Assembly (NCBI GenBank): GCA_038209745.1
Contig: JBBQXJ010000020.1
Location: 1 to 60,280 of the forward strand
Origin: Verrucomicrobiota bacterium
Lineage (GTDB): Bacteria > Verrucomicrobiota > Verrucomicrobiia > Limisphaerales > CANJSG01
Reading direction: 5' to 3'
DNA: 60,280 bases
The position numbers were made by a program, and so were the translations under genes. This document shows, piece by piece, positions 44,497 through 59,534 of this stretch (its first letter is position 1; each line of letters opens with the position of its first letter). Below the pieces are notes generated by a model. The model was not told the DNA's origin. It saw nothing but the letters and a program-made list of their open reading frames with translations, and made no database searches.

Positions 44497-44952
44497 ATGT
44501 CGGACGCGCCTAAATCTGAAAAAATCTTCAACTCTACTTTCCCGATGAAAGTGGATGAGAAGCGGCGCGTGCAGATCCCCGCCAAGTGGCGACCGGACGA
44601 GACGGGGGCGGAAGTGACGATTGTGCCTTGGGAGACAGCTCACGGGATGAGCCTCCGGGTTTTCCCGCAGGCGCAGTTCCTGAAGATGGTCGAGAAGATC
44701 GAGTCGATGCCGGAAGGGTCGGTGGAGCGCGATGAGCTCATGCGCAAGGTGGGCCGGAATTCCGAGCAGGTCACGATCGACACTGTCGGTCGGATTACCC
44801 TGCCCGACGGGATGCTCAAGGCGGCGGGACTGTCAACCCAGGCAGTTTTGGTCGGAGTGGTAAGGGTGTTTGAAATTTGGAACCCGGATCGGTTCGCGGC
44901 CTCTGAAGCCAGCACGGCGCTGGGGCCCGCGAACTACCGGTTCATCGGATGA
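44497..44952 (+). CDS. mraZ: Division/cell-wall cluster transcriptional repressor MraZ
   Basis: Two DxxxR motifs (VDEKRRVQIPAKWR, IDTVGRITLP), LVGV...FEIW. Confidence 0.9.
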   Translation: MSDAPKSEKIFNSTFPMKVDEKRRVQIPAKWRPDETGAEVTIVPWETAHGMSLRVFPQAQFLKMVEKIESMPEGSVERDELMRKVGRNSEQVTIDTVGRITLPDGMLKAAGLSTQAVLVGVVRVFEIWNPDRFAASEASTALGPANYRFIG

Positions 44953-44959
44953 GGTGCGC

Positions 44960-45595
44960 ATGAATTTAAAGCGATTGCTCACAGTGGGCGGAAGTCTCGA
45001 GGCGCGGAAGGGCGCAACGGGTCGTTACAGGATGGCGCAGGGTGGCACGCTGCCGAAGTTCGAGCTTCGCGGGGACACCCTCACGGCCGTTCCCATCGAG
45101 GGAGTCGTTCGTTTGAAGGGCGCGCCGGTGAAGGATTCGGCCGGGCCGCTGTTTGATTCACCGGCTGAGTCTGCCCGGAATGCCGGGGCTGGGGCCTTGA
45201 TCGTATCGTCCGCCCCGAAATCGCCGATCGTCGCCGCGGGCAATCCGTTTTCGTCAGAAGCGCCGCCGCGACCGGTTTCGACGGGAATCCTCAAGGGACT
45301 GCTTGACTCGATCGGATCGGCGCTGAGCGATGCGTTTTCCGGTCGTCGCAACCGTGCTCGGAGACGCGCCGTCCGCGAATCGGTGCAGGGCGAGCTTGGG
45401 CTGGATTCTGTTCGCCCGCTTCGCAACGACCTTTCCGGTTCCGATTTTGAAGTCGTCGCTGCACCTGTCCCAAGGCCCGGGCTGCTGGCTCGAGGTAGTT
45501 TGCCGTCGCGAACTCCGGCCGAGCCAGCAGCACCGGCCGACGGAGCGCCCCCGGTGCATCGGTCCGAAGTCCGCCTGCTCGGTGCGGAGGACTGA
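44960..45595 (+). CDS. Hypothetical protein between mraZ and rsmH
   Basis: 211-aa ORF filling the gap, with GAGGTG upstream; motif-like blocks RYRM...LPKF, NPF, VQGELGLD.V...RNDLS.SD.EVV separated by low-complexity linkers. Confidence 0.65.
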   Translation: MNLKRLLTVGGSLEARKGATGRYRMAQGGTLPKFELRGDTLTAVPIEGVVRLKGAPVKDSAGPLFDSPAESARNAGAGALIVSSAPKSPIVAAGNPFSSEAPPRPVSTGILKGLLDSIGSALSDAFSGRRNRARRRAVRESVQGELGLDSVRPLRNDLSGSDFEVVAAPVPRPGLLARGSLPSRTPAEPAAPADGAPPVHRSEVRLLGAED

Positions 45596-47002: not shown

Positions 47003-48892
47003 GTGAAACCGCAACACCAGTCCACCCAGCGCATCGCGGTTTTCTCCGCGCTGATGATCGGTGGCCTGGTGCTCCTGATGGGACGCCTCGTCTATCTCCA
47101 GGTCTTCCGTCATGAGCCTTTGGCCGAGCGGGCCGAGTCGCAGGTCCGCCGGGTCGTGCAGCGCCAACCGATGCGCGGAGAAATCCGCGATATCCGAGGC
47201 AATCCCATCGCCATCTCCCTGCCGGCCAAAACCGTCGCGGTTGATCCTGTCGCCCTCAACGGCCGGCACCTGGAGGTGGCGAAGATCCTTGCTCCCCTTC
47301 TGCGGATCGACGAACCAGCCCTCGCCGAAAAGCTCACGCCCCGTATCCTGAAGACTGTCGATGGGACAAATTACTACGACCTCTACGTCGTGCTGAAACG
47401 CAAGGTGCCGCTCGACGAGTGCCAGAAGATTTCAGAGGCGATGACGGCGCTCGCCCCCATCTACAGCCATGCCGAGCTCCTCGCGATGCCGCGCAAGACC
47501 CGGAACAAGTTGAATGGCGAATACCAGCAGCTGCGTTTCCGGTCCCTCATCTTCGACGCCGACCAGATCCGGCAGTATCCGGGCAAGAGCCTTGCCTCCC
47601 AGCTCATCGGAGCCACCGCCGCCAATCGGGAGCTGACGGGTCTGATGGGATTGGAACTCCTCTTCAACACCCGATTGCTCGGCGTCTCCGGTTGGCTCCG
47701 GTCCGAACACGACAGCCATCGCCGCGAGCTGAGCCAATATCGCGACCAGGAAGTGGAGGCCCGCCCTGGTGACAACCTGGTCCTGACCATCGATTCCGGC
47801 GTCCAATACATTCTCGAAACCGAGATGGCCAAGCAGATGGTCGAGGTGAAGGCCAAGAGCATCACCGGCATCGTGATCCGCCCCAAGACCGGCGAGATCC
47901 TCGCGATGGCGACGCATCCCACCTTCGATCCGAACGACCTCGACCACAGCTCCCGGGATGCGCTGCGGCCCCGCGCGATCACCGACCAGTATGAACCCGG
48001 CTCAACCTTCAAGGCCGTGACGGTGTCCGCCGCCTTGAACGAGCACAAGGTCGGCCTCGAGGACAAGATCTTCTGTGAGAACGGTGCGTTCACCTACCAC
48101 GGACGCACCCTCCACGACTCGCACGGGCACGCCTCGTTGACGGTCGAGGAGATCATCGAAAAATCCTCCAACATCGGCGCCGCCAAGATCGGTCTCATGC
48201 TCGGGGACGATCTGCTTCTGAAGTATGTCGACTCCTTCGGCTTTGGAAACCGGACCGGAATCACCTTTCCGGCCGAGGCCTCCGGCACCGTCAACCGTCC
48301 GGGCAGCCGCTATTGGAGCGGGCTCAGCATCGTCCAGATTCCCATGGGGCACGGCGTGGCGGTGACTCCCCTGCAGATGGCGATGGCGATGGGGGCGATC
48401 GCCAATGGGGGCAACCTCATGCAGCCGATCCTCGTGGACCGCATCGAGGACGAAAAGGGCGAGGTCATCGTTCGCACTCCACGACGCGTCGTCCGGCAGG
48501 TGATCGCCCCGGAGACCGCCCTTCAGATGATCCAGGCGCTGAAGACCCCGCTATTGGCGGGTGGCACGGCCAAGGGGGCGCGGGTGGACGGTTTCACGGT
48601 GGCCGGCAAGACCGGCACCGCGCAGAAGATCAAAATCGGCGGCGGCTATTCGTCCACCGCCTTCGTTTCGTCGTTCATCGGCTTCCTGCCGGCGGACGAT
48701 CCGGAACTGCTCATCGCCATCGTCGTCGACGAGCCCGCGTTCGATCCGGTGCACAAGTTCCATCAGGGCGGCAAGGCCGCGGCGCCCGTCTTCAAGGCCG
48801 TGGCTGAACGGGCCGCGAACTATCTCAACATCAAACCCGACCTGCAGACCAACAACCTGATCTCGCCGGTCGTCGCCATCGGCAACAACTGA
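47003..48892 (+). CDS. ftsI: Class B penicillin-binding protein (FtsI/PBP3)
   Basis: RGEIRDIRG, RQYP, GLE, EPGSTFK (SxxK), KSSN (SxN), AGKTGTAQK. Confidence 0.93.
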   Translation: MKPQHQSTQRIAVFSALMIGGLVLLMGRLVYLQVFRHEPLAERAESQVRRVVQRQPMRGEIRDIRGNPIAISLPAKTVAVDPVALNGRHLEVAKILAPLLRIDEPALAEKLTPRILKTVDGTNYYDLYVVLKRKVPLDECQKISEAMTALAPIYSHAELLAMPRKTRNKLNGEYQQLRFRSLIFDADQIRQYPGKSLASQLIGATAANRELTGLMGLELLFNTRLLGVSGWLRSEHDSHRRELSQYRDQEVEARPGDNLVLTIDSGVQYILETEMAKQMVEVKAKSITGIVIRPKTGEILAMATHPTFDPNDLDHSSRDALRPRAITDQYEPGSTFKAVTVSAALNEHKVGLEDKIFCENGAFTYHGRTLHDSHGHASLTVEEIIEKSSNIGAAKIGLMLGDDLLLKYVDSFGFGNRTGITFPAEASGTVNRPGSRYWSGLSIVQIPMGHGVAVTPLQMAMAMGAIANGGNLMQPILVDRIEDEKGEVIVRTPRRVVRQVIAPETALQMIQALKTPLLAGGTAKGARVDGFTVAGKTGTAQKIKIGGGYSSTAFVSSFIGFLPADDPELLIAIVVDEPAFDPVHKFHQGGKAAAPVFKAVAERAANYLNIKPDLQTNNLISPVVAIGNN

Positions 48893-48893
48893 C

Positions 48894-50120
48894 ATGTTGC
48901 TCCGCCACATCATCACCGCGCTCTCGCCGACCTCGATCCAAGGTTCGTTGAGCCAGACGATCACCGCTCTGGCGACGGACACCCGCCGCGTCGTCCCGGG
49001 GTCCCTCTTCATCGCGACCAATCTCGATACCGAGGCCGGCTTCGAGCGGGCCAACGAGGCGGTGAACCGCGGCGCCTCGGCCGTGGTGTGCCGGGATGGA
49101 GACTTCGTGACCGCCAGAGTGACCCGGATCCGGGTGGCCGATCCGCGCGAGGCGGTGGCGAGGGCGGCGGCGGCGTTCTATTCCCACCCGGCCGGGAAGC
49201 TGGAAATCGTCCGGTTGAAGTCCGGATCCGACACGGCCGTCTCAGCTTTCCAGGCCCGCCAGTTGCTGGAGCGCGCGGGTCAAAAGGTAGGGTTGATCAG
49301 CTCGCTCGGCTGCTGGGTCGGCGATCGGTTCGTGCCCCCGCCGCCGAGCGGTTTCGACGGCATCGAGGTGCAGCGGCTTTTGGCCGACATGGTCAAGGCA
49401 GGCTGCCGCGTTTGCGTGGTGGAAGGACGGATCGCTTCGCCCGTGATGATCTTCGGTTCCTTTGCCGCGCGTTGGCGCGAAGTCGACAGTCTGGCCGAAG
49501 CCGCGGGCGAGCCGGTCGGTGCGACCCCTTTGCCCGGGGGCTGCGATGCTCCGAAGCGGCGTGTCTCCCCTTCGGCGGTTCCCGGCTGCGCGGAGCGGAT
49601 CCAGTTGGGCCAGGACTTCTCGGTGGTGGTGGACCGGAGCGCGACCTCGGCCCGCCTGGCGGCCGTGTTGAACATCATGCGCCAACAGGCGGAGGGGCGC
49701 CTGTTCCTCGTTTTCGGTGCCAAGGCATGCCACGCGCCCGAAATGCGGCATGCGTTCGGACTGGTTGCCGCCAAGCTGGCCGACGCGGTCTGGATCACGA
49801 CCGACGATCCGGAAAAGGTGCGGCCGGAGTTTCTTGCGGCCGACCTGGGGTCTGTCTGGAAGGCTGTCAGAGAGGATGGACTGACCTTCATTTCCGATCG
49901 GGCGGCTGCGATCCATGCGGCGTTGGGCGAGTCTCGGGCCGGAGACGCGGTGCTCATTGCCGGCAAGGGTGCGGACACGGTCCAGCGCCTCGGCGACACC
50001 ATCGTGCCGTTCGACGATCGCGGATGCGTGCGTCTGTTCCTTGAGCGGGAACAGGACCGCAACAACTGGATGCTGGATCGATTGCTGCCGACCGGTTCCG
50101 CAGAAATGGCGCGAGCCTGA
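48894..50120 (+). CDS. murE: Degenerate MurE-like protein (probable pseudoenzyme)
   Basis: MurE position and scaffold (DTRRV.PGSLF.A, VPG..E, LFLVFG, DR..AI, VLIAGKG, FDDR), but P-loop, EVSSH, DHLD, DYAH and DNPR are lost and there is an internal deletion. Confidence 0.75.
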   Translation: MLLRHIITALSPTSIQGSLSQTITALATDTRRVVPGSLFIATNLDTEAGFERANEAVNRGASAVVCRDGDFVTARVTRIRVADPREAVARAAAAFYSHPAGKLEIVRLKSGSDTAVSAFQARQLLERAGQKVGLISSLGCWVGDRFVPPPPSGFDGIEVQRLLADMVKAGCRVCVVEGRIASPVMIFGSFAARWREVDSLAEAAGEPVGATPLPGGCDAPKRRVSPSAVPGCAERIQLGQDFSVVVDRSATSARLAAVLNIMRQQAEGRLFLVFGAKACHAPEMRHAFGLVAAKLADAVWITTDDPEKVRPEFLAADLGSVWKAVREDGLTFISDRAAAIHAALGESRAGDAVLIAGKGADTVQRLGDTIVPFDDRGCVRLFLEREQDRNNWMLDRLLPTGSAEMARA

Positions 50121-50124
50121 ATCC

Positions 50125-51531
50125 ATGGAATTGTTTTCTCTCCAATCCATCGCCAAAGCCTGTTCCGGCCGCCTCGTGGGTGGTCCGGGCAGGCTGACCG
50201 TGGAACGGGTCTGCACCGATTCGCGGGCGGTGCGGAAGGGGGATCTCTTTGTGGCGCTCAAAGGAGACCGATTCGACGGACACGAATACCTGGAGACGGC
50301 GGCGGAACTCGGAGCCGCAGCCGTGTTGGCGGAAGAGCGGGCGTCGGCAAGTTTTCCAAAAAACTGCCCGATTGTCGCCGTGGCCGACACCCGGCGCGCG
50401 CTGGCCGATCTTGCGCGGGACCACCGGAAGAAATTCTCCATTCCTGTCGTCGCGGTCTGCGGTTCCAACGGGAAGACCAGCACCAAGGAATTGATCGCCT
50501 CGGTGTTGCGGGAGGTCGGCCCGGTGTTGGCCAGCGAAGCCAGCTTCAACAACGACATCGGTGTTCCACTGACGCTGCTACGGCTCACGCCCGAACACAC
50601 GGTCGCGGTGGTCGAGGCGGGCACCAACCACCCGGGCGAACTTGCACCATTGTTGGACCTGGTGCGTCCCAGATTTGGCGTCTTGACCAGCATCGGCCGC
50701 GAGCATCTGGAGTTTTTCCACGACCTCGAAGGCGTGGTCGAGGAGGAGGGGGCCATCGCCGAGGTGTTGCCCGCTGACGGACGTTTGATCGTCAACGCGC
50801 AGACCCCGGGACTGGGCGAGATTCTTGTGCGGACCCACGCGCCCGTGGTGATGGTAGGAATCGACGGACGGTTTGATTTTTCGGCTAGCCACGTGGAGGT
50901 CTCGGAGGCGGGAACCCGCTTCCGATTGAGTTGCCGTCGACCCGAGCTGGACGGGGACTACGCGGTCCAGCTCCTCGGTCGGCACCATGTGGCCAACGCC
51001 TTGCTTGCAGTGGCCGTAGGTGCCGAACTGGGGCTGAACCGGGAACAAATTGCCCGTGGGCTGGCGGTCTGTGCACCGGCGAAGATGCGGATGCAATGGA
51101 ATGACGTGGCCGGGGTGCGGGTGCTGAACGACGCCTACAACGCGAATGCGGACTCGATGATCGCCGCTTTGCGGACACTGGCGGACCTGCCCGCAGGCGG
51201 GCGCCGCGTGGCCGTGCTTGGCGAGATGGGCGAACTCGGCGACCACACCGTCGCAGCCCATGAGGAGGTCGGTCGTCGCGCCGCCAATGCGGGGCTGGAT
51301 TGGCTCTTGGCCGTCGGGCAAAACGCCGGGCTCACGGTGGCGGCGGCGAAGCGAGAGGGATTTCGGAAGCGGTTGGACGCGGTCGCGGACATGGGTGCCG
51401 CGTCGTCGCTCCTGGGCAGGGAACTGAAGCCGGGAGACGTCGTGCTCTTGAAAGCATCTCGCGCGGCGCAACTTGAAAGGGTCTTGCAGGGGCTGCTGGA
51501 GCGGTCTGTCAAGACGGGGACAACGGCATGA
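50125..51531 (+). CDS. murF: UDP-MurNAc-tripeptide--D-Ala-D-Ala ligase
   Basis: TDSR, GDRFDGH, CGSNGKTSTKE, NNDIGVP.TL, EAGTNHPGE, NDAYNAN..SM, LKASR. Confidence 0.95.
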   Translation: MELFSLQSIAKACSGRLVGGPGRLTVERVCTDSRAVRKGDLFVALKGDRFDGHEYLETAAELGAAAVLAEERASASFPKNCPIVAVADTRRALADLARDHRKKFSIPVVAVCGSNGKTSTKELIASVLREVGPVLASEASFNNDIGVPLTLLRLTPEHTVAVVEAGTNHPGELAPLLDLVRPRFGVLTSIGREHLEFFHDLEGVVEEEGAIAEVLPADGRLIVNAQTPGLGEILVRTHAPVVMVGIDGRFDFSASHVEVSEAGTRFRLSCRRPELDGDYAVQLLGRHHVANALLAVAVGAELGLNREQIARGLAVCAPAKMRMQWNDVAGVRVLNDAYNANADSMIAALRTLADLPAGGRRVAVLGEMGELGDHTVAAHEEVGRRAANAGLDWLLAVGQNAGLTVAAAKREGFRKRLDAVADMGAASSLLGRELKPGDVVLLKASRAAQLERVLQGLLERSVKTGTTA

Positions 51532-51710: not shown

Positions 51711-52859
51711 ATGCTCTACTACCTGAGCCAGGCGATCATGGAGGCCGCGAAAGGCACGGAGTGGGAGTCCTCCGTGAGCTTTCTGCGGCTCTTCAACTAT
51801 ATCACCTTCCGGGCGGGCGCGGCCATGTTGACGGCCCTCGCGTTGAGCTGGTGGCTGGGGCCGTATTTCATCGCTTGGCTGAAGGAGCTGAAGTTTGGCC
51901 AGGATTACGCCGACAAGGCCGAGGAAGGTGGCGACATCAAGGCCCGCATCCTCAGCAAGAAAGGCACTCCCACCATGGGCGGCGTGATGATCGTGCTGAT
52001 CCTGGATCTCTCCGCGTTGCTCTGGACGCAATGGAACACGCAGATGCAGCTGACGATGCTGCTGGTGCTGGTCCTGGCCGGGCTGGGTTTCTACGACGAC
52101 TACGCGAAGATCACCAAGCAGGACAACAAGGGCGCAAAGTCGCACGTGAAACTTTGGGTGCAGGTCATCCTGGCCGGATTTGTCGCGTTCTATCTTTGGC
52201 AGGTGAAGCCGGACCTGGTGTCCGAAGTGATCGTGCCGTTCCACAAATACCCGGTGCTGACGGGGACGGCAGGGCTCATCGGCGGGGTGATGGTGATCCT
52301 GTTGACGATCGTCGGCAGCTCCAACGCCGTGAACCTGACGGATGGGTTGGACGGGCTCGCCATTGGATGCACCATCATCGTGTCCGGGGTGTTCCTTGTC
52401 CTCACCTACATCGCCGGCAACGCGAAGATGGCGGAATACCTACAGGTGCCCCACGTGGTCGGGTCCGGTGAACTTTCGGTTTTTTGTGCCGCCATGGTGG
52501 GTGCGGGACTTGGATTCATGTGGTACAACTGCCATCCTGCGAAACTGTTCATGGGTGACACCGGCTCGCTCGCGCTCGGGGGGATCCTCGGGATCATCGC
52601 GGTGCTGATCCACCAGCCGTTCGTGCTGATGATCGCCGGCGGGGTTTTCGTCATGGAAGCCGTGTCGGTGATGCTCCAGACCTCGTGGTTTCGCTGGACG
52701 CGCCGGCGGACGGGGACGGGCCGGAGGCTCTTCCTGATGGCGCCGATCCACCATCATTTTGAAAAAAAGGGCTGGTATGAATCGCAGGTCGTGACGCGGT
52801 TCTACATTCTCTGCGTGGTTTGCGCCGTCGTGGCGCTGGGAAGCTTGAAGATTCGTTGA
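51711..52859 (+). CDS. mraY: Phospho-N-acetylmuramoyl-pentapeptide transferase
   Basis: KKGTPTMGG, GFYDDY.K, NAVNLTDGLDGLA, FMGDTGSLALG, MAPIHHHFE. Confidence 0.97.
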   Translation: MLYYLSQAIMEAAKGTEWESSVSFLRLFNYITFRAGAAMLTALALSWWLGPYFIAWLKELKFGQDYADKAEEGGDIKARILSKKGTPTMGGVMIVLILDLSALLWTQWNTQMQLTMLLVLVLAGLGFYDDYAKITKQDNKGAKSHVKLWVQVILAGFVAFYLWQVKPDLVSEVIVPFHKYPVLTGTAGLIGGVMVILLTIVGSSNAVNLTDGLDGLAIGCTIIVSGVFLVLTYIAGNAKMAEYLQVPHVVGSGELSVFCAAMVGAGLGFMWYNCHPAKLFMGDTGSLALGGILGIIAVLIHQPFVLMIAGGVFVMEAVSVMLQTSWFRWTRRRTGTGRRLFLMAPIHHHFEKKGWYESQVVTRFYILCVVCAVVALGSLKIR

Positions 52860-52860
52860 A

Positions 52861-54309
52861 ATGGCCTCGCTGAAAGACAAACGGGTGCTGGTGATCGGGC
52901 TGCATGAAGCGGGCCGAGCCGTGGTGCGCCTGCTGCTGGCGAACGGCGCGGGCGTAGAGGGCGTGGACGGCCATGATGCCGTGGAGTCCCGCGAAGCGTC
53001 GGTGCCGCTGCAGAAGAAGGGGGCCCGGCTCCACTTTGGTGCAACCCGATGCCCGGACGGACCGTTCCACTTCGTTGTCGTCTGTCCTGAAGTCAAGGGC
53101 GAGGCGGCTTTTGTCGCGGCGGCCGAGGCGAAGGGGTGGCCCGTGATCAGCGAGCTGGAGTTCGCCTACGAACAGATGTTCTGCCTGAACATCGCCGTCA
53201 CCGGATCCAACGGGAAGTCCACCACGGCTCGGCTCGTGGCCAAAATCCTCGGAGACGGCGGGCGTCTGACCCGCGTCGTCGGAGGCCCTGAAGCGCCCCT
53301 TTGCGAAGTCGTCGGAGAAACGCGCGATCTCGATTACCTGACCGTGGAGGCTCTCGCGCCGCAGTTGGAACGGACCGTCTATTTCAGACCCTCCGTCGCG
53401 GTGCTGACGAATATTGTGCCGGACCATCTGGACCGTTACGCCAGCCTCCCGGACTACGTGCGGGCCATGGCCCAGATCTTCGCACGGCAGCAGTCGTTCG
53501 ACTGGGCGATCGTCCAAAGCGAGGCGCTCGCGCACTTGAGAACGCTCGGTCTCCCTGTTCCCGGCAAGGTCATCACCTTCAGTGCCAGGACCCAGTTGGC
53601 GGATCTTTTCCTCGACCGCTCCCTGATCGTCAGCCGGATCGAAGGCTGGGAAGGACCGCTTTTCGACATGGATCGCTCGAAACTGCGCGGTCCCCACAAC
53701 GCCGAAAACATCATGGCGGCCTTGGCGGTGGGGCGGGTGCTGCGGATGCCGATCAAGGAAATGGCGGCGGCTCTGGAAGCGTATGAGCCAGCGCCGCACC
53801 GGTTTGAGCTGGTGGCCGAGGTGGACGGTGTTCGTTATATCAATGACTCCCGGGCCACGAATCTCCAGGCTTTGACCTGCGCGATCGAGTCCGTGCCGGG
53901 TGGATCCGGCGGGCAGCCAAACGTCTGGCTGATTGCCGGCGGGCGGGACAAGGGTCTCCCGTTCCACGACGCGGGGCCGCTGATTTCCAAGCGGGTGAAG
54001 GGTGCTTTTTTGCTGGGTGAAGCTCGCGAAAAGCTTCGTGCGGCATGGAGTCTGTTTACACCTTGCAGCACCATGGACACGCTGTTAGAAGCCGTTGGGC
54101 AAGCGGCACGCAGCGCCGTTCCGGGCGATGTGGTGCTCCTTTCACCGGCCTGTTCGAGCTTCGACCAGTTCCAGAACTACCAGCAACGGGGCGACGTGTT
54201 TCGTCGGGCGGTGACCGCCCTGACGCCATCGCCCGGTGGCCACCCGGCGATGGTGGGCCCAGACAATCCGAAATTCGCCACCAGTTTAACCACCGACACC
54301 GGGGCTTGA
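52861..54309 (+). CDS. murD: MurD-like ligase with divergent UDP-MurNAc-L-Ala-binding motifs
   Basis: VTGSNGKSTT, PDHLDRY, HNAEN, HRFE, NDSRATN, GG.DKG, LLSPACSSFDQF.NY..RG. Confidence 0.88.
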   Translation: MASLKDKRVLVIGLHEAGRAVVRLLLANGAGVEGVDGHDAVESREASVPLQKKGARLHFGATRCPDGPFHFVVVCPEVKGEAAFVAAAEAKGWPVISELEFAYEQMFCLNIAVTGSNGKSTTARLVAKILGDGGRLTRVVGGPEAPLCEVVGETRDLDYLTVEALAPQLERTVYFRPSVAVLTNIVPDHLDRYASLPDYVRAMAQIFARQQSFDWAIVQSEALAHLRTLGLPVPGKVITFSARTQLADLFLDRSLIVSRIEGWEGPLFDMDRSKLRGPHNAENIMAALAVGRVLRMPIKEMAAALEAYEPAPHRFELVAEVDGVRYINDSRATNLQALTCAIESVPGGSGGQPNVWLIAGGRDKGLPFHDAGPLISKRVKGAFLLGEAREKLRAAWSLFTPCSTMDTLLEAVGQAARSAVPGDVVLLSPACSSFDQFQNYQQRGDVFRRAVTALTPSPGGHPAMVGPDNPKFATSLTTDTGA

Positions 54310-54367: not shown

Positions 54368-55300
54368 ATGAGCACACCGAGCCCCCTTGTTCCCCAGGGA
54401 TCGATCCAGGACGCGCCGAAGGGCCGTCGAAACCTCCCCGTCCTCGTCTTCTCCGTCATCGGCTTCCACGTCGCCGTCCTCGGCGTCGCGCTGATGATCG
54501 GGTGCAAGCCGGAGACGACCAAGACCGCCGATCCATTGGCCCAATTCTCCGAGACGAACGCGGCTGCGCCCCTCGTCACCGACACCTCGGCGACCAAAGG
54601 CAACGCGGCCCCGATCACGAATCCCTACGAACTTCCGCCGGCCCCGATGCCGGCCCCGGGAACTGCGCTCGGTGGAACGCCTGCGCCGGCCCCCGGCTAT
54701 GGAACTGTCCCGCCTCCGATCGGCGCAACTCCTGTTCCTGCTCCGACGCCGACGCCGACGCCGACGCCTGGAGGCTATGGTGCTCCCGGATCTTTCGTCG
54801 ATCCCCTCACGCCGGCCGTTGAACCGGCTTCGTCCTCGACAACCGAGCACAAGGTCAAGAGCGGCGACACGTTCGGCAAGATGGCCAAGGAGTATGGCGT
54901 GTCTTCCAAAGCGATCATTTCCGCCAATCCAAATCTCGACCCCCGTCGGTTGAAGGTCGGTCAGAGCGTCCTCATTCCGGCCCCCTCGAAGGCTACGGGG
55001 GCTCCGTCCGCTCCGTCCGCCTCGGCTCGTTCCGCTGGCTCCGCCACGACTGGAACCTACGTGGTCAAGTCGGGTGACAGCCTGACCCGGATCGCCGCGA
55101 AGCACGGAACTTCCGTCAAAGCCCTCAAGAGCCTCAATGGACTCAAAACCGACCGTGTCAACGTCGGCCAGAAGCTGAAAGTGCCGGTGAAGAGCGCTCC
55201 CGAGCCGGCCCCGGCTTCGGCCCCGGCCCCGGAGCTTCCGATCAGTCCTTCGTTCGGAACTTCTCCATCGACCGTCCCTGTGCCACAGCCGGTCCGTTGA
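54368..55300 (+). CDS. Membrane-anchored protein with two LysM domains and a Pro/Thr-rich linker
   Basis: TM/lipobox-like LMIGC; HKVKSGDTF.KMAK...LKVGQ and YVVKSGDSL.RIA...VGQKLKVP; PTPTPTP linker. Confidence 0.88.
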   Translation: MSTPSPLVPQGSIQDAPKGRRNLPVLVFSVIGFHVAVLGVALMIGCKPETTKTADPLAQFSETNAAAPLVTDTSATKGNAAPITNPYELPPAPMPAPGTALGGTPAPAPGYGTVPPPIGATPVPAPTPTPTPTPGGYGAPGSFVDPLTPAVEPASSSTTEHKVKSGDTFGKMAKEYGVSSKAIISANPNLDPRRLKVGQSVLIPAPSKATGAPSAPSASARSAGSATTGTYVVKSGDSLTRIAAKHGTSVKALKSLNGLKTDRVNVGQKLKVPVKSAPEPAPASAPAPELPISPSFGTSPSTVPVPQPVR

Positions 55301-56463
55301 TCGTCCGCCCGAATTCGTCGACCCCTGCCGCCATGCGCCTTCCCATCACCATTCTGGTGTTCTGCGTGGGAGCGCTCTTGGCGCTGGGGTTGACGATTCT
55401 CTTCAGCGCCGAGCTCGGGGACACGGCGCAGTATTTCAGGAACCAGCTTCTCTGGTGCTGCATTGCTCTGCCAGCGGCATTGGTCGCCGCCGCCGTGCCC
55501 TACCAGCAGCTTCGCCGCTGGTGGTGGTTGGTGCTGCTGCTCTCCGTCGCGCTGCTGGTCCTCGTCTTTCTCAAGGGCAAATCGATCAACGGCGCCCGCC
55601 GTTGGCTCGGCCCGAAAGGGGGTCCCTATCTCCAACCTTCCGAGTTCGCCAAGATCGCTCTCATCATCGCGCTCGCCTGGTATGGGGAACGGTTCCGCGA
55701 CCGGATGCGGACCTTTCTGCACGGGGTATTGATCCCCGGAGCGGGAGTCGGCCTGGTGCTGGGACTCGTCTTCCTTGAACCCGACGTCGGCACCACCTTG
55801 TTGATGGCGTGCGTGGCCGCGACGTTGCTTCTTACCGCAGGAGCCCGTCTTTCCTTTTTCCTGCCTCCCGTTGTGGTCGGGCTCGTCGGCGTCGGGCTTT
55901 TCATCGCCCGCGACCCCATGCGCTCGGACCGCATCCACTCGTGGCTCAACCTCGAAGAGACGCGGCTGAACGTCGGCCACCAGGCTTTTCAGGCGCAGGT
56001 CGCCATCGGTGCGGGCGGCATCACGGGTCGAGGACTGGGCGAAGGTCGGCAGAAGCTTGGCTGGGTGCCGGAGCATCATACCGACTTCATTTTCTCCGTC
56101 GTCGCGGAGGAGTTGGGATTGGTCGGAGGGGGGCTGGTTCTTCTGGCCTACATCGGCATCATCATCACCGGGACGTGGATCGCCCTGAACGCGGCCGACG
56201 TGTTCGGATCACTGATCGCGATGGGAGTGACCACGCTGATCGGCGTCCAGACGTTCATCAACGTGGGGGTCGTCACCGGCACGCTTCCAAACAAGGGGTT
56301 GGCGTTGCCGTTCATGAGCTATGGCGGCTCCAGCCTGCTCTTCATGCTGACGGCCGTGGGGCTTTTGCTGAACGTGGCCCGGGAAGCGCGGTCGTCGGGA
56401 CGGCGACACCCGAACACCGGTTCAAACCCCTTTTCCGACGAGGCTCTTTCCGAAGCTGTCTGA
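55297..56463 (+). CDS. ftsW: SEDS peptidoglycan glycosyltransferase FtsW
   Basis: NGARRWL, QPSEFAK, EPDVGT, G.GLG.G.QK...PEHHTDFIF, PNKG..LPFMSYGGSS; alternative ATG at 55333. Confidence 0.95.
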   Translation: MIVRPNSSTPAAMRLPITILVFCVGALLALGLTILFSAELGDTAQYFRNQLLWCCIALPAALVAAAVPYQQLRRWWWLVLLLSVALLVLVFLKGKSINGARRWLGPKGGPYLQPSEFAKIALIIALAWYGERFRDRMRTFLHGVLIPGAGVGLVLGLVFLEPDVGTTLLMACVAATLLLTAGARLSFFLPPVVVGLVGVGLFIARDPMRSDRIHSWLNLEETRLNVGHQAFQAQVAIGAGGITGRGLGEGRQKLGWVPEHHTDFIFSVVAEELGLVGGGLVLLAYIGIIITGTWIALNAADVFGSLIAMGVTTLIGVQTFINVGVVTGTLPNKGLALPFMSYGGSSLLFMLTAVGLLLNVAREARSSGRRHPNTGSNPFSDEALSEAV

Positions 56464-57659
56464 TGCGAGACTCCAACCCCAAGCCGATGGTGGCCATCGC
56501 CTGCGGTGGCACGGGCGGCCATCTCTTTCCCGGGGTGGCCGTGGCCGACCAGCTCCTGCTGCGTGGTGCGGACGTGACGCTGCTTGTCTCGCCGAAAGAG
56601 GTGGACCAACAGGTCGTCGGCACGCTTCGGGGTGTCGAGGTGGTCACGCTCCCGGCGGTCGGTCTGACCCGCGGGCGCTATCTTGCTTTCCTCTCCGGCT
56701 TCATCCGCTCCTACCGTCGTTCCCATGCCCTCTTCAGACGCATCCAGCCGGCCGCCGCCCTCGCGATGGGCGGCTTCACCAGTGCGGCTCCGGTTTTTGC
56801 GGCCCATCGCCGCGGCGTGAGGACCTGCCTGCACGAGTCGAACACCATTCCCGGGCGCGCCAATCGCTGGCTCGCCCATTGGGTCGACGATGCGTTCGTC
56901 TACTTCGACGGCGCGGCCCGGCGTTTGAAGGGCCCCCGCACCCATGTCGTCGGAATGCCCGTCCGGCCTCAGTTCGAAGGCATGGACGCCGAGTCCGCCC
57001 GGATCTCGCTCGGCCTCCGTCCGCAACGTCCGACGCTCCTGGTCATGGGTGGAAGCCAAGGCGCCTCCGGCATCAACCAGCTCGTCACCGGAGCTTTGCC
57101 GCTATTGAAAGAGCGTTTGTCCGACTGGCAGTTCATCCACCTGAGCGGTGTCGCCGACGTGGAATCGGTTCGCCAATGTTATGCCCGTCTCGGATTGACC
57201 GCCGTGGTCCGGCCCTTTCTCAGCGAGATGGAATACGCCCTCGGCGCGGCCACTCTCTGCGTCAGCCGTTCGGGGGCGTCCTCCCTGGCAGAACTCGCCG
57301 CCATGAACGTGCCGGCAGTGCTGATTCCCTATCCGACCGCGGCCGACGACCACCAGCGGGCCAACGCCCGTGCCTTCGTGGACACCGGCGCCGCTTGGCT
57401 GCTGGAACAGGGGAAGACCTCGCCGAAGGAACTGGCCGACCTGCTGTCGAAACTGGCCGCCGACGATGCGCTGCTCGGCTCGACGAAAGTGGCGCTCGAT
57501 CGCTGGCATTTTCCGGGCGCAGCCGAAGCGATCGCCGATTTCATCGCCCGCGAAGCCGGCATCAAACCGCGTGACTGGACGAAGCCGCAGCCAATGAGCC
57601 GCGAGGATTCCGGACACGGTAGATCATCGAATTCAAGGGAGCTGTGTCTCGCTCCGTGA
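56463..57659 (+). CDS. murG: Undecaprenyldiphospho-muramoylpentapeptide GlcNAc transferase
   Basis: GGTGGHLFPG, GGF.S, HESN..PG.AN, G.PVR, GGSQGA, RSGASS..E, HQ..NA. Confidence 0.95.
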   Translation: MRDSNPKPMVAIACGGTGGHLFPGVAVADQLLLRGADVTLLVSPKEVDQQVVGTLRGVEVVTLPAVGLTRGRYLAFLSGFIRSYRRSHALFRRIQPAAALAMGGFTSAAPVFAAHRRGVRTCLHESNTIPGRANRWLAHWVDDAFVYFDGAARRLKGPRTHVVGMPVRPQFEGMDAESARISLGLRPQRPTLLVMGGSQGASGINQLVTGALPLLKERLSDWQFIHLSGVADVESVRQCYARLGLTAVVRPFLSEMEYALGAATLCVSRSGASSLAELAAMNVPAVLIPYPTAADDHQRANARAFVDTGAAWLLEQGKTSPKELADLLSKLAADDALLGSTKVALDRWHFPGAAEAIADFIAREAGIKPRDWTKPQPMSREDSGHGRSSNSRELCLAP

Positions 57660-57661
57660 AC

Positions 57662-58606
57662 ATGACGACACTCGATCCAACGCTGAACTGCGACCGTTTG
57701 GCCACCCTCGCGCACGGGCTGCGGGCGCTGTTGACGCCGGGAACGGAGATCAGGACGCGTGAACCGCTCGCCAAACGGACCACGCTGCGCGTCGGGGGGG
57801 CGGCCGATCTCTTCGTCGAGCCTCAGACCGAAGGGGATCTTGGGCTTTTGCTCGGTTGGAGCGCGGACCATGGACTGCCCGTGACCGTCCTGGGCCGGGG
57901 CTCGAATCTGGTGGTCCGAGACGGCGGCATCCGCGGCGTCGTCCTGTCTTTGGCGCACGAGGGGCTGAGCCGGATCGAGGTGGACGGAACGCGGCTTCGC
58001 TGCGGCGCCGGTGCCCGGCTGAAAGCCGTCTCCAACGAGGCGCGGAAGGCGGGTTTGACCGGATTGGAGTTTCTCGAAGGCATCCCTGGCAGCGTCGGTG
58101 GCGCGTTGCGGATGAATGCCGGCGCGATGGGTTCGGAGACTTTCAAGTCGGTCGAGAGACTGCGGTTCATGGGCCCCGCCGGTGAGGTGTCCGACTTGGC
58201 CGTGTCCGAAGTGGCGGTCGAATACCGCTGCTGTCCGCTGTTGAAGACGCACATCGCGCTCGGCGCCGTTTTTGTCGGCCAACCTGCGACGCCCGAAGAG
58301 ATTCGGGCGCGCATGGACCAGTTCAACACCAAGCGCTGGACGACTCAGCCGCCCCAGCCCAGCGCCGGTTGCACCTTCAAGAACGCTCCGGCCCTCCCCA
58401 CTGGAAAACTGGTGGACGAGCTCGGACTCAAGGGCACGCACATCGGCGGCGCCATGGTGTCCGGTCTGCACGGCAATTTCATCGTGAACCTCGGGAACGC
58501 CACCGCGCGCGACGTGCTGGCGCTGATCGAGAAGGTCAAACAGTGCGCGCTGGACGAGCGCGGCATCGAGCTCCAGACCGAGGTCGAAATTCTGGGAGAA
58601 GACTGA
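57662..58606 (+). CDS. murB: UDP-N-acetylenolpyruvoylglucosamine reductase
   Basis: TTLRVGG.A, GRGSNL, GLEFLEGIPGSVGGALRMNAGA, SAGCTFKN, HGNFIVN, ELQTEV. Confidence 0.96.
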   Translation: MTTLDPTLNCDRLATLAHGLRALLTPGTEIRTREPLAKRTTLRVGGAADLFVEPQTEGDLGLLLGWSADHGLPVTVLGRGSNLVVRDGGIRGVVLSLAHEGLSRIEVDGTRLRCGAGARLKAVSNEARKAGLTGLEFLEGIPGSVGGALRMNAGAMGSETFKSVERLRFMGPAGEVSDLAVSEVAVEYRCCPLLKTHIALGAVFVGQPATPEEIRARMDQFNTKRWTTQPPQPSAGCTFKNAPALPTGKLVDELGLKGTHIGGAMVSGLHGNFIVNLGNATARDVLALIEKVKQCALDERGIELQTEVEILGED

Positions 58607-58607
58607 G

Positions 58608-59534
58608 ATGAGCGTGCTCAACATCGCGGTGTTCCTCGGTGGCCCGTCCGCCGAGCGCGACGTCTCGCTCCGGACCGGCCGGGCGGTGGCGCAAGCGTTG
58701 ACGTCTCTCGGCCATCGGGTGACGGAGATCGATCCCATGCCTGGCCGCCTGGAACTGCCGGCCGGGACGGACGTTGTCTTCCTCGCGTTGCACGGGACCT
58801 ATGGCGAGGACGGACTCGTGCAGCACGAGCTCGACGCGCTCGGCGTTCCCTACACGGGCTGCGATGCCGTCGCCAGCCGCATCGCCTTCGACAAGGTCCT
58901 GACCAAGCTCGCCTGTCTGCGGGACGGCGTGCCGACGGCGCCCTTCGCCGTGCTCCACGCCGGCACCCGTTCTTGGCCCGCCGGAATGCGACCTCCCGTG
59001 GTGATGAAGCCCGTCCGGCAGGGCTCCAGCGTGGGGTTGTATTTCCTGGACGATGAATCCGGCATGGCCGCCGCCTTGGACGGCGTGTTGAAGCACGACA
59101 CCGAGGCGTTGATGGAAGCCAGGATCGTCGGGCGCGAGACCACCGTCGGGATCGTCGACGGCAAGGCGCTCCCCGTCGTCGAAGTGCGGCCGCGACAGGG
59201 GAACTACGACTACACGAACAAGTACACCTCCGGCGCGACCGAATACCTCTGCCCTGCGCCGTTCGACGAAGCGACCACCCGCCGCATCCAAGCCGCCGGT
59301 CTCGGTGCGTTCCGCGCCATCGGAGGCCGCGACTATGCGCGGGTGGACGTGATGGTGACCCCCGATGGTGAACCGGTCGTCCTCGAAGTGAACACCTTGC
59401 CCGGCATGACCGAGACCAGCCTGTTGCCCAAGGCCGCCGTCGCCGCCGGCATCGGCTACCCGGATCTTTGCCAGCGGATGGTGAGCCTCGCCCTGCGTCG
59501 CAAGTCGGAATCCCCAGCTACCCTTGCCCGATGA
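58608..59534 (+). CDS. ddl: D-alanine--D-alanine ligase
   Basis: GGPSAERDVS, ALHG.YGEDG, KP...GSSVG, YDY.NKY, RVD, EVNTLPGMT..SL.P. Confidence 0.96.
   Translation: MSVLNIAVFLGGPSAERDVSLRTGRAVAQALTSLGHRVTEIDPMPGRLELPAGTDVVFLALHGTYGEDGLVQHELDALGVPYTGCDAVASRIAFDKVLTKLACLRDGVPTAPFAVLHAGTRSWPAGMRPPVVMKPVRQGSSVGLYFLDDESGMAAALDGVLKHDTEALMEARIVGRETTVGIVDGKALPVVEVRPRQGNYDYTNKYTSGATEYLCPAPFDEATTRRIQAAGLGAFRAIGGRDYARVDVMVTPDGEPVVLEVNTLPGMTETSLLPKAAVAAGIGYPDLCQRMVSLALRRKSESPATLAR

Follow-up and report, generated by a model that had tools for sequence, protein, structure and literature searches.

The stretch of DNA analysed here, referred to below as the window, comprises the 60,280 nucleotides of contig JBBQXJ010000020.1 (assembly GCA_038209745.1) from a bacterium of the Verrucomicrobiota. 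It carries a division and cell wall (dcw) cluster in the order mraZ, rsmH, ftsL, ftsI, murE*, murF, mraY, murD, a LysM-protein gene, ftsW, murG, murB, ddl and ftsQ, where murE* denotes the unusual MurE homologue that is the subject of this study. We have high confidence that this homologue is a pseudoenzyme. Its frame starts at the second base after the ftsI stop codon, leaving a spacer of 1 nucleotide, and ends 4 nucleotides before the ATG of murF. An intact murE occupies the same slot between ftsI and murF in five related loci (L069, L072, L084, L087 and L088), and murE* is the syntenic descendant of murE. The gene and its parts, residue numbers being those of the protein, are as follows.

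48894..50120, plus strand: murE*, a MurE homologue that is catalytically dead by sequence; 408 residues, ATG start, zero internal stops
48894..49193, plus strand: N-terminal domain remnant, residues 1–100; D29-x-R31, G36, the GA motif and P99 kept, G..DG loop lost
49194..49508, plus strand: gutted central domain, residues 101–205; P-loop lysine, TTP, SSH, DHLDYH and neighbouring conserved columns substituted or deleted
49509..49577, plus strand: linker, residues 206–228, predicted to be disordered and poorly conserved
49578..50021, plus strand: C-terminal domain, residues 229–376, the best-kept part; PF02875 at 65.6 bits, DDPE and GKGAD present, PFDDR kept
50022..50117, plus strand: C-terminal tail, residues 377–408, a predicted long helix conserved only in this subclade

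Loss of the catalytic apparatus

Profile searches recognise the two ends of a MurE protein and not its middle. The C-terminal Pfam domain (Mur_ligase_C, PF02875) matches residues 235–359 and the N-terminal Mur_ligase domain matches weakly, at 23 bits for a cut-off of 21. The ATP-binding domain (Mur_ligase_M, PF08245) finds no match in murE*, although the same model gives 130.9 bits for MurF and 77.5 bits for MurD close by. The NCBIfam model for MurE (TIGR01085) gives 172.4 bits, divided between two separate stretches, and misses its cut-off of 257.3; indeed murE* falls far under the cut-off of every equivalog family model. In BLAST comparisons with intact relatives, residues 1–177 and approximately 229–384 align with 33–46% identity, and between them some 50 residues of murE* replace about 150 in intact MurE, so that about 100 residues are missing overall.

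The alignment of murE* with the intact MurE proteins of its relatives shows the changes motif by motif. The P-loop GVTGTNGKTT reads VRLKSG--SDTA, with a threonine in the lysine column; TTPE has become SGFD, MEVSSH has become VVEGRIA, DYAHT has become DRSAT, GCGGxRDxxKR has become GAKACHAPEMR and GKGHE has become GKGAD, whilst the FTNL..DHLDYH block is deleted together with adjoining columns. The DNPR motif, which recognises meso-diaminopimelate (DAP, or meso-A2pm), is DDPE in murE* and DDP[GS] in the second subclade of the genus. In one structural account, the asparagine and arginine of this motif make hydrogen bonds to meso-A2pm (PMC3681970). As a measure of overall loss we took the 96 columns that are each at least 90% conserved across 65 intact MurE rows. 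At these positions murE* keeps 54 residues, with 29 substituted and 13 deleted. The 42 lost columns include the whole GTNGKTT P-loop, TPE, the serine of MEVSSH, FTNL..D, the histidine of DYAH, GG.R, the asparagine and arginine of DNPR, and the glutamate of GKGHE..QE. With family score, ATP domain and DNPR all failing, murE* reads as no ordinary MurE, and annotation as a ligase would be inappropriate.

What remains is nevertheless predicted to be a folded protein. An AlphaFold2 model built from a 79-row alignment has a mean predicted local distance difference test score (pLDDT) of 88.9 and a predicted template modelling score of 0.81, with pLDDT below 50 only at residues 208–224, and murE* is confidently predicted to fold as a three-domain MurE. 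The model superimposes on Staphylococcus aureus MurE (4c13) with a Z score of 29.2 and a root-mean-square deviation of 3.5 Å over 371 residues (VIA-align); Z is 28.8 for Thermotoga MurE and 27.1 for both E. coli MurE (1e8c) and PAP11 of the plant plastid RNA polymerase. The middle domain is predicted to survive as a small alpha/beta unit with strands at residues 104–108, 132–136, 173–176 and 194–197, and a long C-terminal helix specific to this subclade is predicted at residues 375–397. A predicted complex of murE* with MurF scored 0.00, a value that, with no controls run, speaks neither for nor against binding.

The initial annotation, made from the letters of the sequence alone, had described an open frame of 408 residues packed tightly between ftsI and murF, had listed these motif changes and a central deletion of about 100 residues, and had held that structural motifs of the N- and C-terminal domains survive. 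The coordinates and spacers confirm the first of these points, every listed change and the deletion are present in the alignment with intact relatives, and the model, with its Z scores to solved MurE structures, agrees with the last.

Selection on murE*

Six further genomes sampled from the genus each contain the short form of the gene as well. Five of these copies are full or nearly so. The G003 copy is cut by a contig end, and a contig end also removes the final six codons of the G002 copy. Each of the six full orthologues has an MLLR start right after the ftsI stop and contains zero internal stops. They fall into two subclades, one of which includes the host genome (G000) and G002, with 83–94% amino acid identity inside a subclade and 42–45% between the two.

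Ratios of non-synonymous to synonymous substitution rates (dN/dS) are quoted from NG86, since the more distant pairs had no YN00 value. For murE* the ratio is 0.115 in the G000–G002 pair, at a dS of approximately 1.0, and 0.058–0.125 in six pairs of the other subclade, at a dS of 0.45–0.69. In these near pairs of the other subclade murE* equals murF (0.09–0.13); the corresponding values are 0.06–0.08 for ftsI, which rises to 0.29 in G000–G002, 0.03–0.06 for murD and 0.01–0.05 for mraY. Constraint extends to each domain, with near-pair ratios of 0.02–0.105 in the N-terminal remnant and 0.06–0.15 in the gutted central domain, and with 0.05–0.11 in the C-terminal domain. Only the linker at residues 206–228 is nearly free to change (dN/dS 0.63 and 22% identity in G000–G002), and it thereby shows what neutrality looks like within murE*. 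The tail has a ratio of 0.057 over 26 codons in G000–G002, and the subclade-specific C-terminal helix is thus strongly constrained in this pair; in the other subclade the tail has a different sequence and ratios of 0.12–0.97. Ratios of 0.06–0.125 at a dS of 0.45–1.0 mean that the amino acid sequence itself has been selected, beyond the mere upkeep of an open frame.

Environmental sequences give a similar picture. Contigs from four metagenome runs, belonging to four studies of sediment and soil, cover murE* with zero indels, two of them spanning the gene, and the 20 differences within it divide into 12 synonymous and 8 non-synonymous changes. In a search of 5.8 billion clustered proteins the short form is confined to the nine top-ranking clusters (P0001–P0009; 391–410 residues, with the C-terminal Pfam domain only), which points to a narrow but old family.

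An ordinary pseudogene is ruled out by the lack of stops and frameshifts in the genus copies and metagenome contigs and by a dN/dS of about 0.1. The initial annotation had argued that the catalytic residues were gone while selection kept the scaffold, and had named stops in relatives or a dN/dS near 1 as the marks of simple decay. Neither mark was found in the genus orthologues, whose frames are open, whose dN/dS matches that of murF and whose domains are each constrained. That part of its proposal, lost catalysis with a scaffold kept under selection, is therefore supported; the functions it suggested, a scaffold for MurF or MurG or a precursor sensor, are candidate roles. What it missed was the context of Mpl and MurC, to which we now turn.

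Cell-wall ligases of the host and its order

The genes around murE* look like those of a working cluster:

47003..48892, plus strand: ftsI, class B penicillin-binding protein, directly upstream of murE*; Pfam Transpeptidase 243 bits, PBP_dimer
50125..51531, plus strand: murF, intact, directly downstream of murE*; TIGR01143 403 bits against a cut-off of 288.6, all three Pfam domains
51711..52859, plus strand: mraY, 59–71% identical to MraY of Verrucomicrobiota metagenome-assembled genomes
52861..54309, plus strand: murD, ATP motifs intact (K to R in NDSKATN); TIGR01087 310 bits against a cut-off of 212
54368..55300, plus strand: LysM-domain protein within the dcw cluster; Pfam LysM 108 bits in two stretches
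55297..59534, plus strand: open reading frames of ftsW, murG (start near 56523, not fixed), murB and ddl

Two further features of the cluster are recorded here for completeness. The LysM protein (54368–55300), between murD and ftsW, is proline-rich, with one predicted membrane segment and two LysM domains, and related dcw loci that extend this far carry a homologue in the corresponding position, murD being present or not. Between mraZ and rsmH, and overlapping the end of mraZ, lies a 241-residue open reading frame (44870–45595) without a Pfam match, perhaps a small unknown gene or else a spurious high-GC frame.

There is no murC between murG and murB in the window, where murG adjoins murB, whereas in related loci with an intact murE a MurC-like gene sits between the two. 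The same holds for the host assembly (4.58 Mb in 140 contigs, 92% complete), in which no protein exceeds the TIGR01085 cut-off for MurE and no MurC was found, the best MurC-like protein, on contig C62, reaching 306.3 bits against a cut-off of 335.1. Four proteins of the genome carry Mur_ligase_M, namely MurF, MurD, the C62 protein and a 437-residue protein on contig C107 that we read as putatively FolC-like. The C62 protein (C62:18473–19834; L004 619–2085) scores 461.3 bits with the Mpl model TIGR01081, for which the cut-off is 388.7, and carries TAFFDKRSK, in keeping with the (S/T)AFFDKRSK motif that one report gives as specific to Mpl (PMC3060825). By score and motif it is Mpl, not MurC. MurA (539 bits), MurB, MraY, MurG, FtsW and FtsI are all encoded in the genome, as are DapF (258 bits) and an LdcA-like peptidase.

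With neither MurC nor any other MurE in the host genome, Mpl appears to be the only ligase left for putting peptide on UDP-MurNAc (MurNAc being N-acetylmuramic acid), and the same appears to be true of most of the order. UDP-MurNAc-tripeptide is the normal product of Mpl and the substrate of MurF. The neighbourhood of mpl on C62 contains no ligase, peptidase or peptide transporter to explain the source of the tripeptide, its genes encoding a sodium:dicarboxylate symporter, a DUF2330 protein, a PQQ-like propeller, an aldose epimerase, ApaG and an EamA transporter.

The condition of the host is shared widely in its order. We sampled 41 genomes, consisting of its own genus and one genome from each of 34 further families. 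MurE exceeds its cut-off in 18 of the 41, and 17 of these keep all or nearly all catalytic motifs, the eighteenth (G019) being a full-length dead form. MurC exceeds its cut-off in 12, all of them MurE-intact, with contig-end fragments in a further three MurE-intact genomes (G020, G023 and G030) and in G033, whose fragmented cluster may have lost murE to a contig break. MurD passes in 27 and is not found at E 1e-30 in 11, and Mpl is near-universal (37 of 41). Genomes without MurE include well-assembled ones, such as G040 (96% complete, 40 contigs), G015 (92%, 60 contigs) and G026 (97%). Outside the order MurE is normal: of 150 genomes from elsewhere in the phylum, each at least 90% complete, 147 have a MurE above the cut-off. 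At E 1e-100 Mpl is present in 47 of 50 other genomes of the same class, and it was not found in 100 genomes of the phylum's other classes. Mpl is thus a prerequisite for losing MurE without being sufficient for it.

A second sample, of 28 dcw loci on single contigs of Verrucomicrobiota metagenome-assembled genomes, was chosen by MraY similarity and is hence non-random. Twenty-five of the loci span the junction of ftsI and murF; murE looks intact in five, is dead in three (L074, L090 and L092) and is absent from 17. The five loci with an intact-looking murE all have murD, and in three of them a murC-like gene separates murG from murB; the remaining two contigs stop short of this point. Most of the 17 murE-less loci are also without murD or retain a murD remnant of 58 or 99 residues. 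Dead but open forms of MurD, in which DHLDRY is lost, are present in L090, L093 and L094, and in L090 the P-loop lysine has in addition changed to arginine. Eight dcw proteins were concatenated for a maximum-likelihood tree (quick search; 32 rows and 3048 columns; proteobacterial outgroup; the short loci L076, L088 and L095 were dropped). In this tree the intact lineages fall among the degenerate ones, so that at least four separate losses or inactivations are needed, L090 being counted as dead. The clades affected are this genus with L086 and L090; L096 with L074 and L092; a clade of 14 rows that has neither murE nor murD; and L093 with L094.

Other open and independently degenerate MurE proteins, of 435–515 residues, occur in G019 (L026), G013 (L027), L074, L090, L092 and the clusters P0013, P0015, P0016 and P0017, with P-loops that read GTRGRTT, GSFGQCS, GEESETT, GTHGRVC or SGCPARI. 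Most of them keep DNP and GKGH and are therefore less eroded than murE*.

Two further possibilities were rejected. A substitute ligase was sought in the dcw gaps of the MurE-less relatives, and these gaps hold a SIMPL-family membrane protein or a PIN-domain gene. MurI (TIGR00067), which was not found in the host genome, fails as a marker, being present in only 9 of the 41 genomes and absent from many MurE-intact ones, so that it does not separate the groups. As separate observations, the slot between ftsI and murF is occupied in the murE-less loci L078 (5866–6594), L082, L085 and L091 by a conserved, membrane-anchored SIMPL/DUF541 protein of 243–271 residues (Pfam PF04402, 78.5 bits in L078), and a PIN-domain (VapC-like) gene lies between murB and ddl in L075, L078, L079 and L081 (Pfam PIN 35.4 bits for L078 13844–14293). 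In literature listings outside subscription journals we found no paper on a dead bacterial MurE, nor one on loss of MurC, MurD and MurE with Mpl retained in this order.

Possible roles of murE* and comparison with known systems

The absence of MurC and of another MurE, the presence of Mpl and the erosion seen across the order together explain why MurE could die. It is probable that murE* is a folded, MurE-derived pseudoenzyme, unable to bind ATP or to recognise DAP, which purifying selection maintains for a non-catalytic role after an Mpl route had made its catalysis redundant. In such a scheme the tripeptide would arrive through Mpl, which would make MurE catalysis dispensable; the active site would then have decayed, whilst the fold was kept for a non-catalytic job in the cytoplasmic machinery that makes cell-wall precursors. 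The existence of a Mur ligase complex has long been debated, and the likeliest job for murE* may be that of a structural partner for MurF and other Mur or dcw proteins. Our confidence in this scaffold role, which is argued by analogy, is a good deal lower than in the pseudoenzyme itself, and we put it forward as a minority possibility. The analogy is with a reported MurE–MurF chimera in which the C-terminal end of MurE lies over a hydrophobic patch on MurF, and in which MurC and MurD bind to the C-terminal domain of MurE in combination with domains one and two of MurF (PMC10214165).

Several observations weigh against this interpretation. Neither AmpG (TIGR00901) nor AnmK was found in the host genome, and the textbook recycling route that feeds Mpl is therefore incomplete. 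A pure Mpl-tripeptide route also fails to explain MurD, which throughout the genus keeps its ATP motifs, with K to R in NDSKATN as the one recorded change, and is under tighter constraint than any other ligase of the cluster; an intact MurD hints at continued formation of the dipeptide intermediate and at a continuing addition of DAP by some means. The murE gene is wholly absent from at least 15 of the 41 genomes and from 17 of the 25 loci, so that any scaffold role must be dispensable in those close relatives. Between the subclades murE* has diverged faster than MurF or MraY, with 42–45% identity against 57–58% and 76–77%, respectively, and its C-terminal tail is not conserved between them. 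As to the estimates of selection, dS is near saturation in the G000–G002 pair, YN00 failed for several pairs, and every genome used is a metagenome bin.

The main alternative to a scaffold is a changed ligand-binding role, in which murE* would be a relic that has ceased to ligate but still binds a UDP-MurNAc-peptide or the free stem peptide. It would serve as carrier, sensor or regulator, for example by passing the product of Mpl to MurF or by monitoring the level of precursors. The N-terminal domain retains D29-x-R31, G36 and the GA motif, and the C-terminal domain retains at least 30 family-conserved positions, including R263, R285, D297, T302, D304, GKG and PFDDR, both domains being under purifying selection. 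The replacement motifs DDP and GKGA[DE] are themselves conserved in both subclades, which fits a binding site that has changed rather than one that has been lost. Set against this, the G..DG loop, the central TTP and the asparagine and arginine of DNPR have all been replaced. The DNPR residues are known contacts of meso-A2pm (PMC3681970), and the change from arginine to glutamate reverses the charge. We regard a ligand-binding relic, as read from these motifs, as unlikely, although it deserves more weight than the explanations that follow.

A more improbable proposal is that murE* is an enzyme still, either as a ligase that borrows the ATP site of a partner in trans or through a new activity that supplies the missing DAP-adding step. 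The attraction of this idea lies in MurD, which looks catalytically intact and strongly constrained in a cell with no MurC or active MurE. In E. coli, one study reports, Mpl has a weak activity with L-Ala, and a murC(ts) mutant can be complemented by overexpression of mpl (PMC3060825). Mpl and MurD may thus still make the dipeptide nucleotide, and if they do an unknown activity must add DAP; it is for this reason that we retain the proposal, at low odds. The host genome has no other Mur-ligase paralogue, and the subclade of the host retains the glutamate of MEVSSH as E177. In the other subclade, however, the same position is aspartate, and the replacement of the P-loop likewise differs between the two, KSGSDT against VPGEDS. 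The Walker lysine, the DHLDYH block, the conserved-lysine column that follows it and the GG.RD..KR loop have all gone, with about 100 residues of the ATP-binding domain deleted, and the cluster holds no candidate partner gene.

Least probable of all is a slowly decaying leftover, not yet hit or held open so that ribosomes can run through to murF (translational coupling): the gene does abut ftsI and murF with spacers of 1 and 4 nucleotides, most relatives live without murE, and the order displays all stages from intact through dead to absent, with murD remnants of 58 and 99 residues in two loci, but a dN/dS of 0.06–0.125 at a dS of 0.45–1.0, low in each domain, a frame free of stops and indels across six genomes and four metagenome runs, and a linker of 23 residues as the only part that evolves almost freely all speak against it.

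Returning to the pseudoenzyme reading, the erosion of the pathway across the order is more surprising than the pseudoenzyme itself. Recycling alone gives no net growth, so lineages left with only Mpl and MurF must either take up wall peptides from the environment or make them by a synthesis of an unknown kind. It is conceivable, and we hold it tentatively, that most of this Limisphaerales/Pedosphaerales-like order gave up de novo synthesis of the stem peptide, with MurC, MurE and often MurD lost or inactivated while MurA, MurB, Mpl, MurF, MraY, MurG, FtsW and FtsI were kept, and builds its wall from L-Ala-D-Glu-mDAP ligated by Mpl; that the peptides are scavenged from the wall debris of other bacteria or come from an enzyme system not yet known; and that dead MurE and MurD are structural fossils on which the Mur complex of some lineages still depends.

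These possibilities matter because MurC to MurF are textbook examples of essential enzymes and are targets of antibiotics. It is unusual for a free-living bacterium to retain an operon for wall building in which MurE is selected but catalytically dead, and this raises the question of where the stem tripeptide comes from. Were salvage the answer, this would be a new auxotrophy for wall peptides, of use in culturing the Limisphaerales and in following the flow of carbon and nitrogen from bacterial necromass; were it new synthesis, a new pathway would be implied. The Limisphaerales-like group is abundant in soil and sediment and is rarely cultured, a rarity in culture that a dependence on foreign wall peptides could help to explain.

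In comparison with canonical MurE, murE* shares the slot between ftsI and murF and the predicted three-domain fold (Z 27–29 over 363–373 residues). Canonical MurE differs in being about 100 residues longer, in possessing Mur_ligase_M, in passing the family cut-off and in keeping the motifs for ATP, magnesium and DAP. The bypass of MurC, MurD and MurE by Mpl recycling is a second known system, and the host Mpl likewise passes TIGR01081 and carries TAFFDKRSK. In E. coli and its relatives, however, Mpl is a non-essential side road beside a complete pathway from MurC to MurF, whereas in the host it is seemingly the sole UDP-MurNAc ligase.

The nearest mechanistic lead is probably the Mur ligase complex as represented by the MurE–MurF chimera (PDB 8F5D; PMC10214165). 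The likeness is that the C-terminal domain is the best-kept part of murE* and that murF begins 4 nucleotides downstream; the difference is that both halves of the chimera are active enzymes, whereas murE* is apparently dead and separate from MurF.

The nearest functional analogue may be plant PAP11 (PDB 8R6S, 8QMA, 8W9Z and 8XZV), a homologue of MurE that has a structural part, as a subunit, in a different machine. It sets a precedent for the MurE fold in a role other than ligation. PAP11 is the top Foldseek match of the murE* model (E 1.2e-27) and is also matched by phmmer (E of about 1e-24). The MurE of seed plants is not known to take part in wall synthesis. PAP11, a eukaryotic protein encoded in the nucleus, has a long N-terminal extension and forms part of a transcription complex, whereas murE* lies in a bacterial dcw operon among other wall genes that look active and shows no link to transcription. 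As a possible bacterial counterpart of PAP11, murE* would be a natural experiment on what MurE does beyond catalysis, with a direct bearing on the Mur ligase complex.

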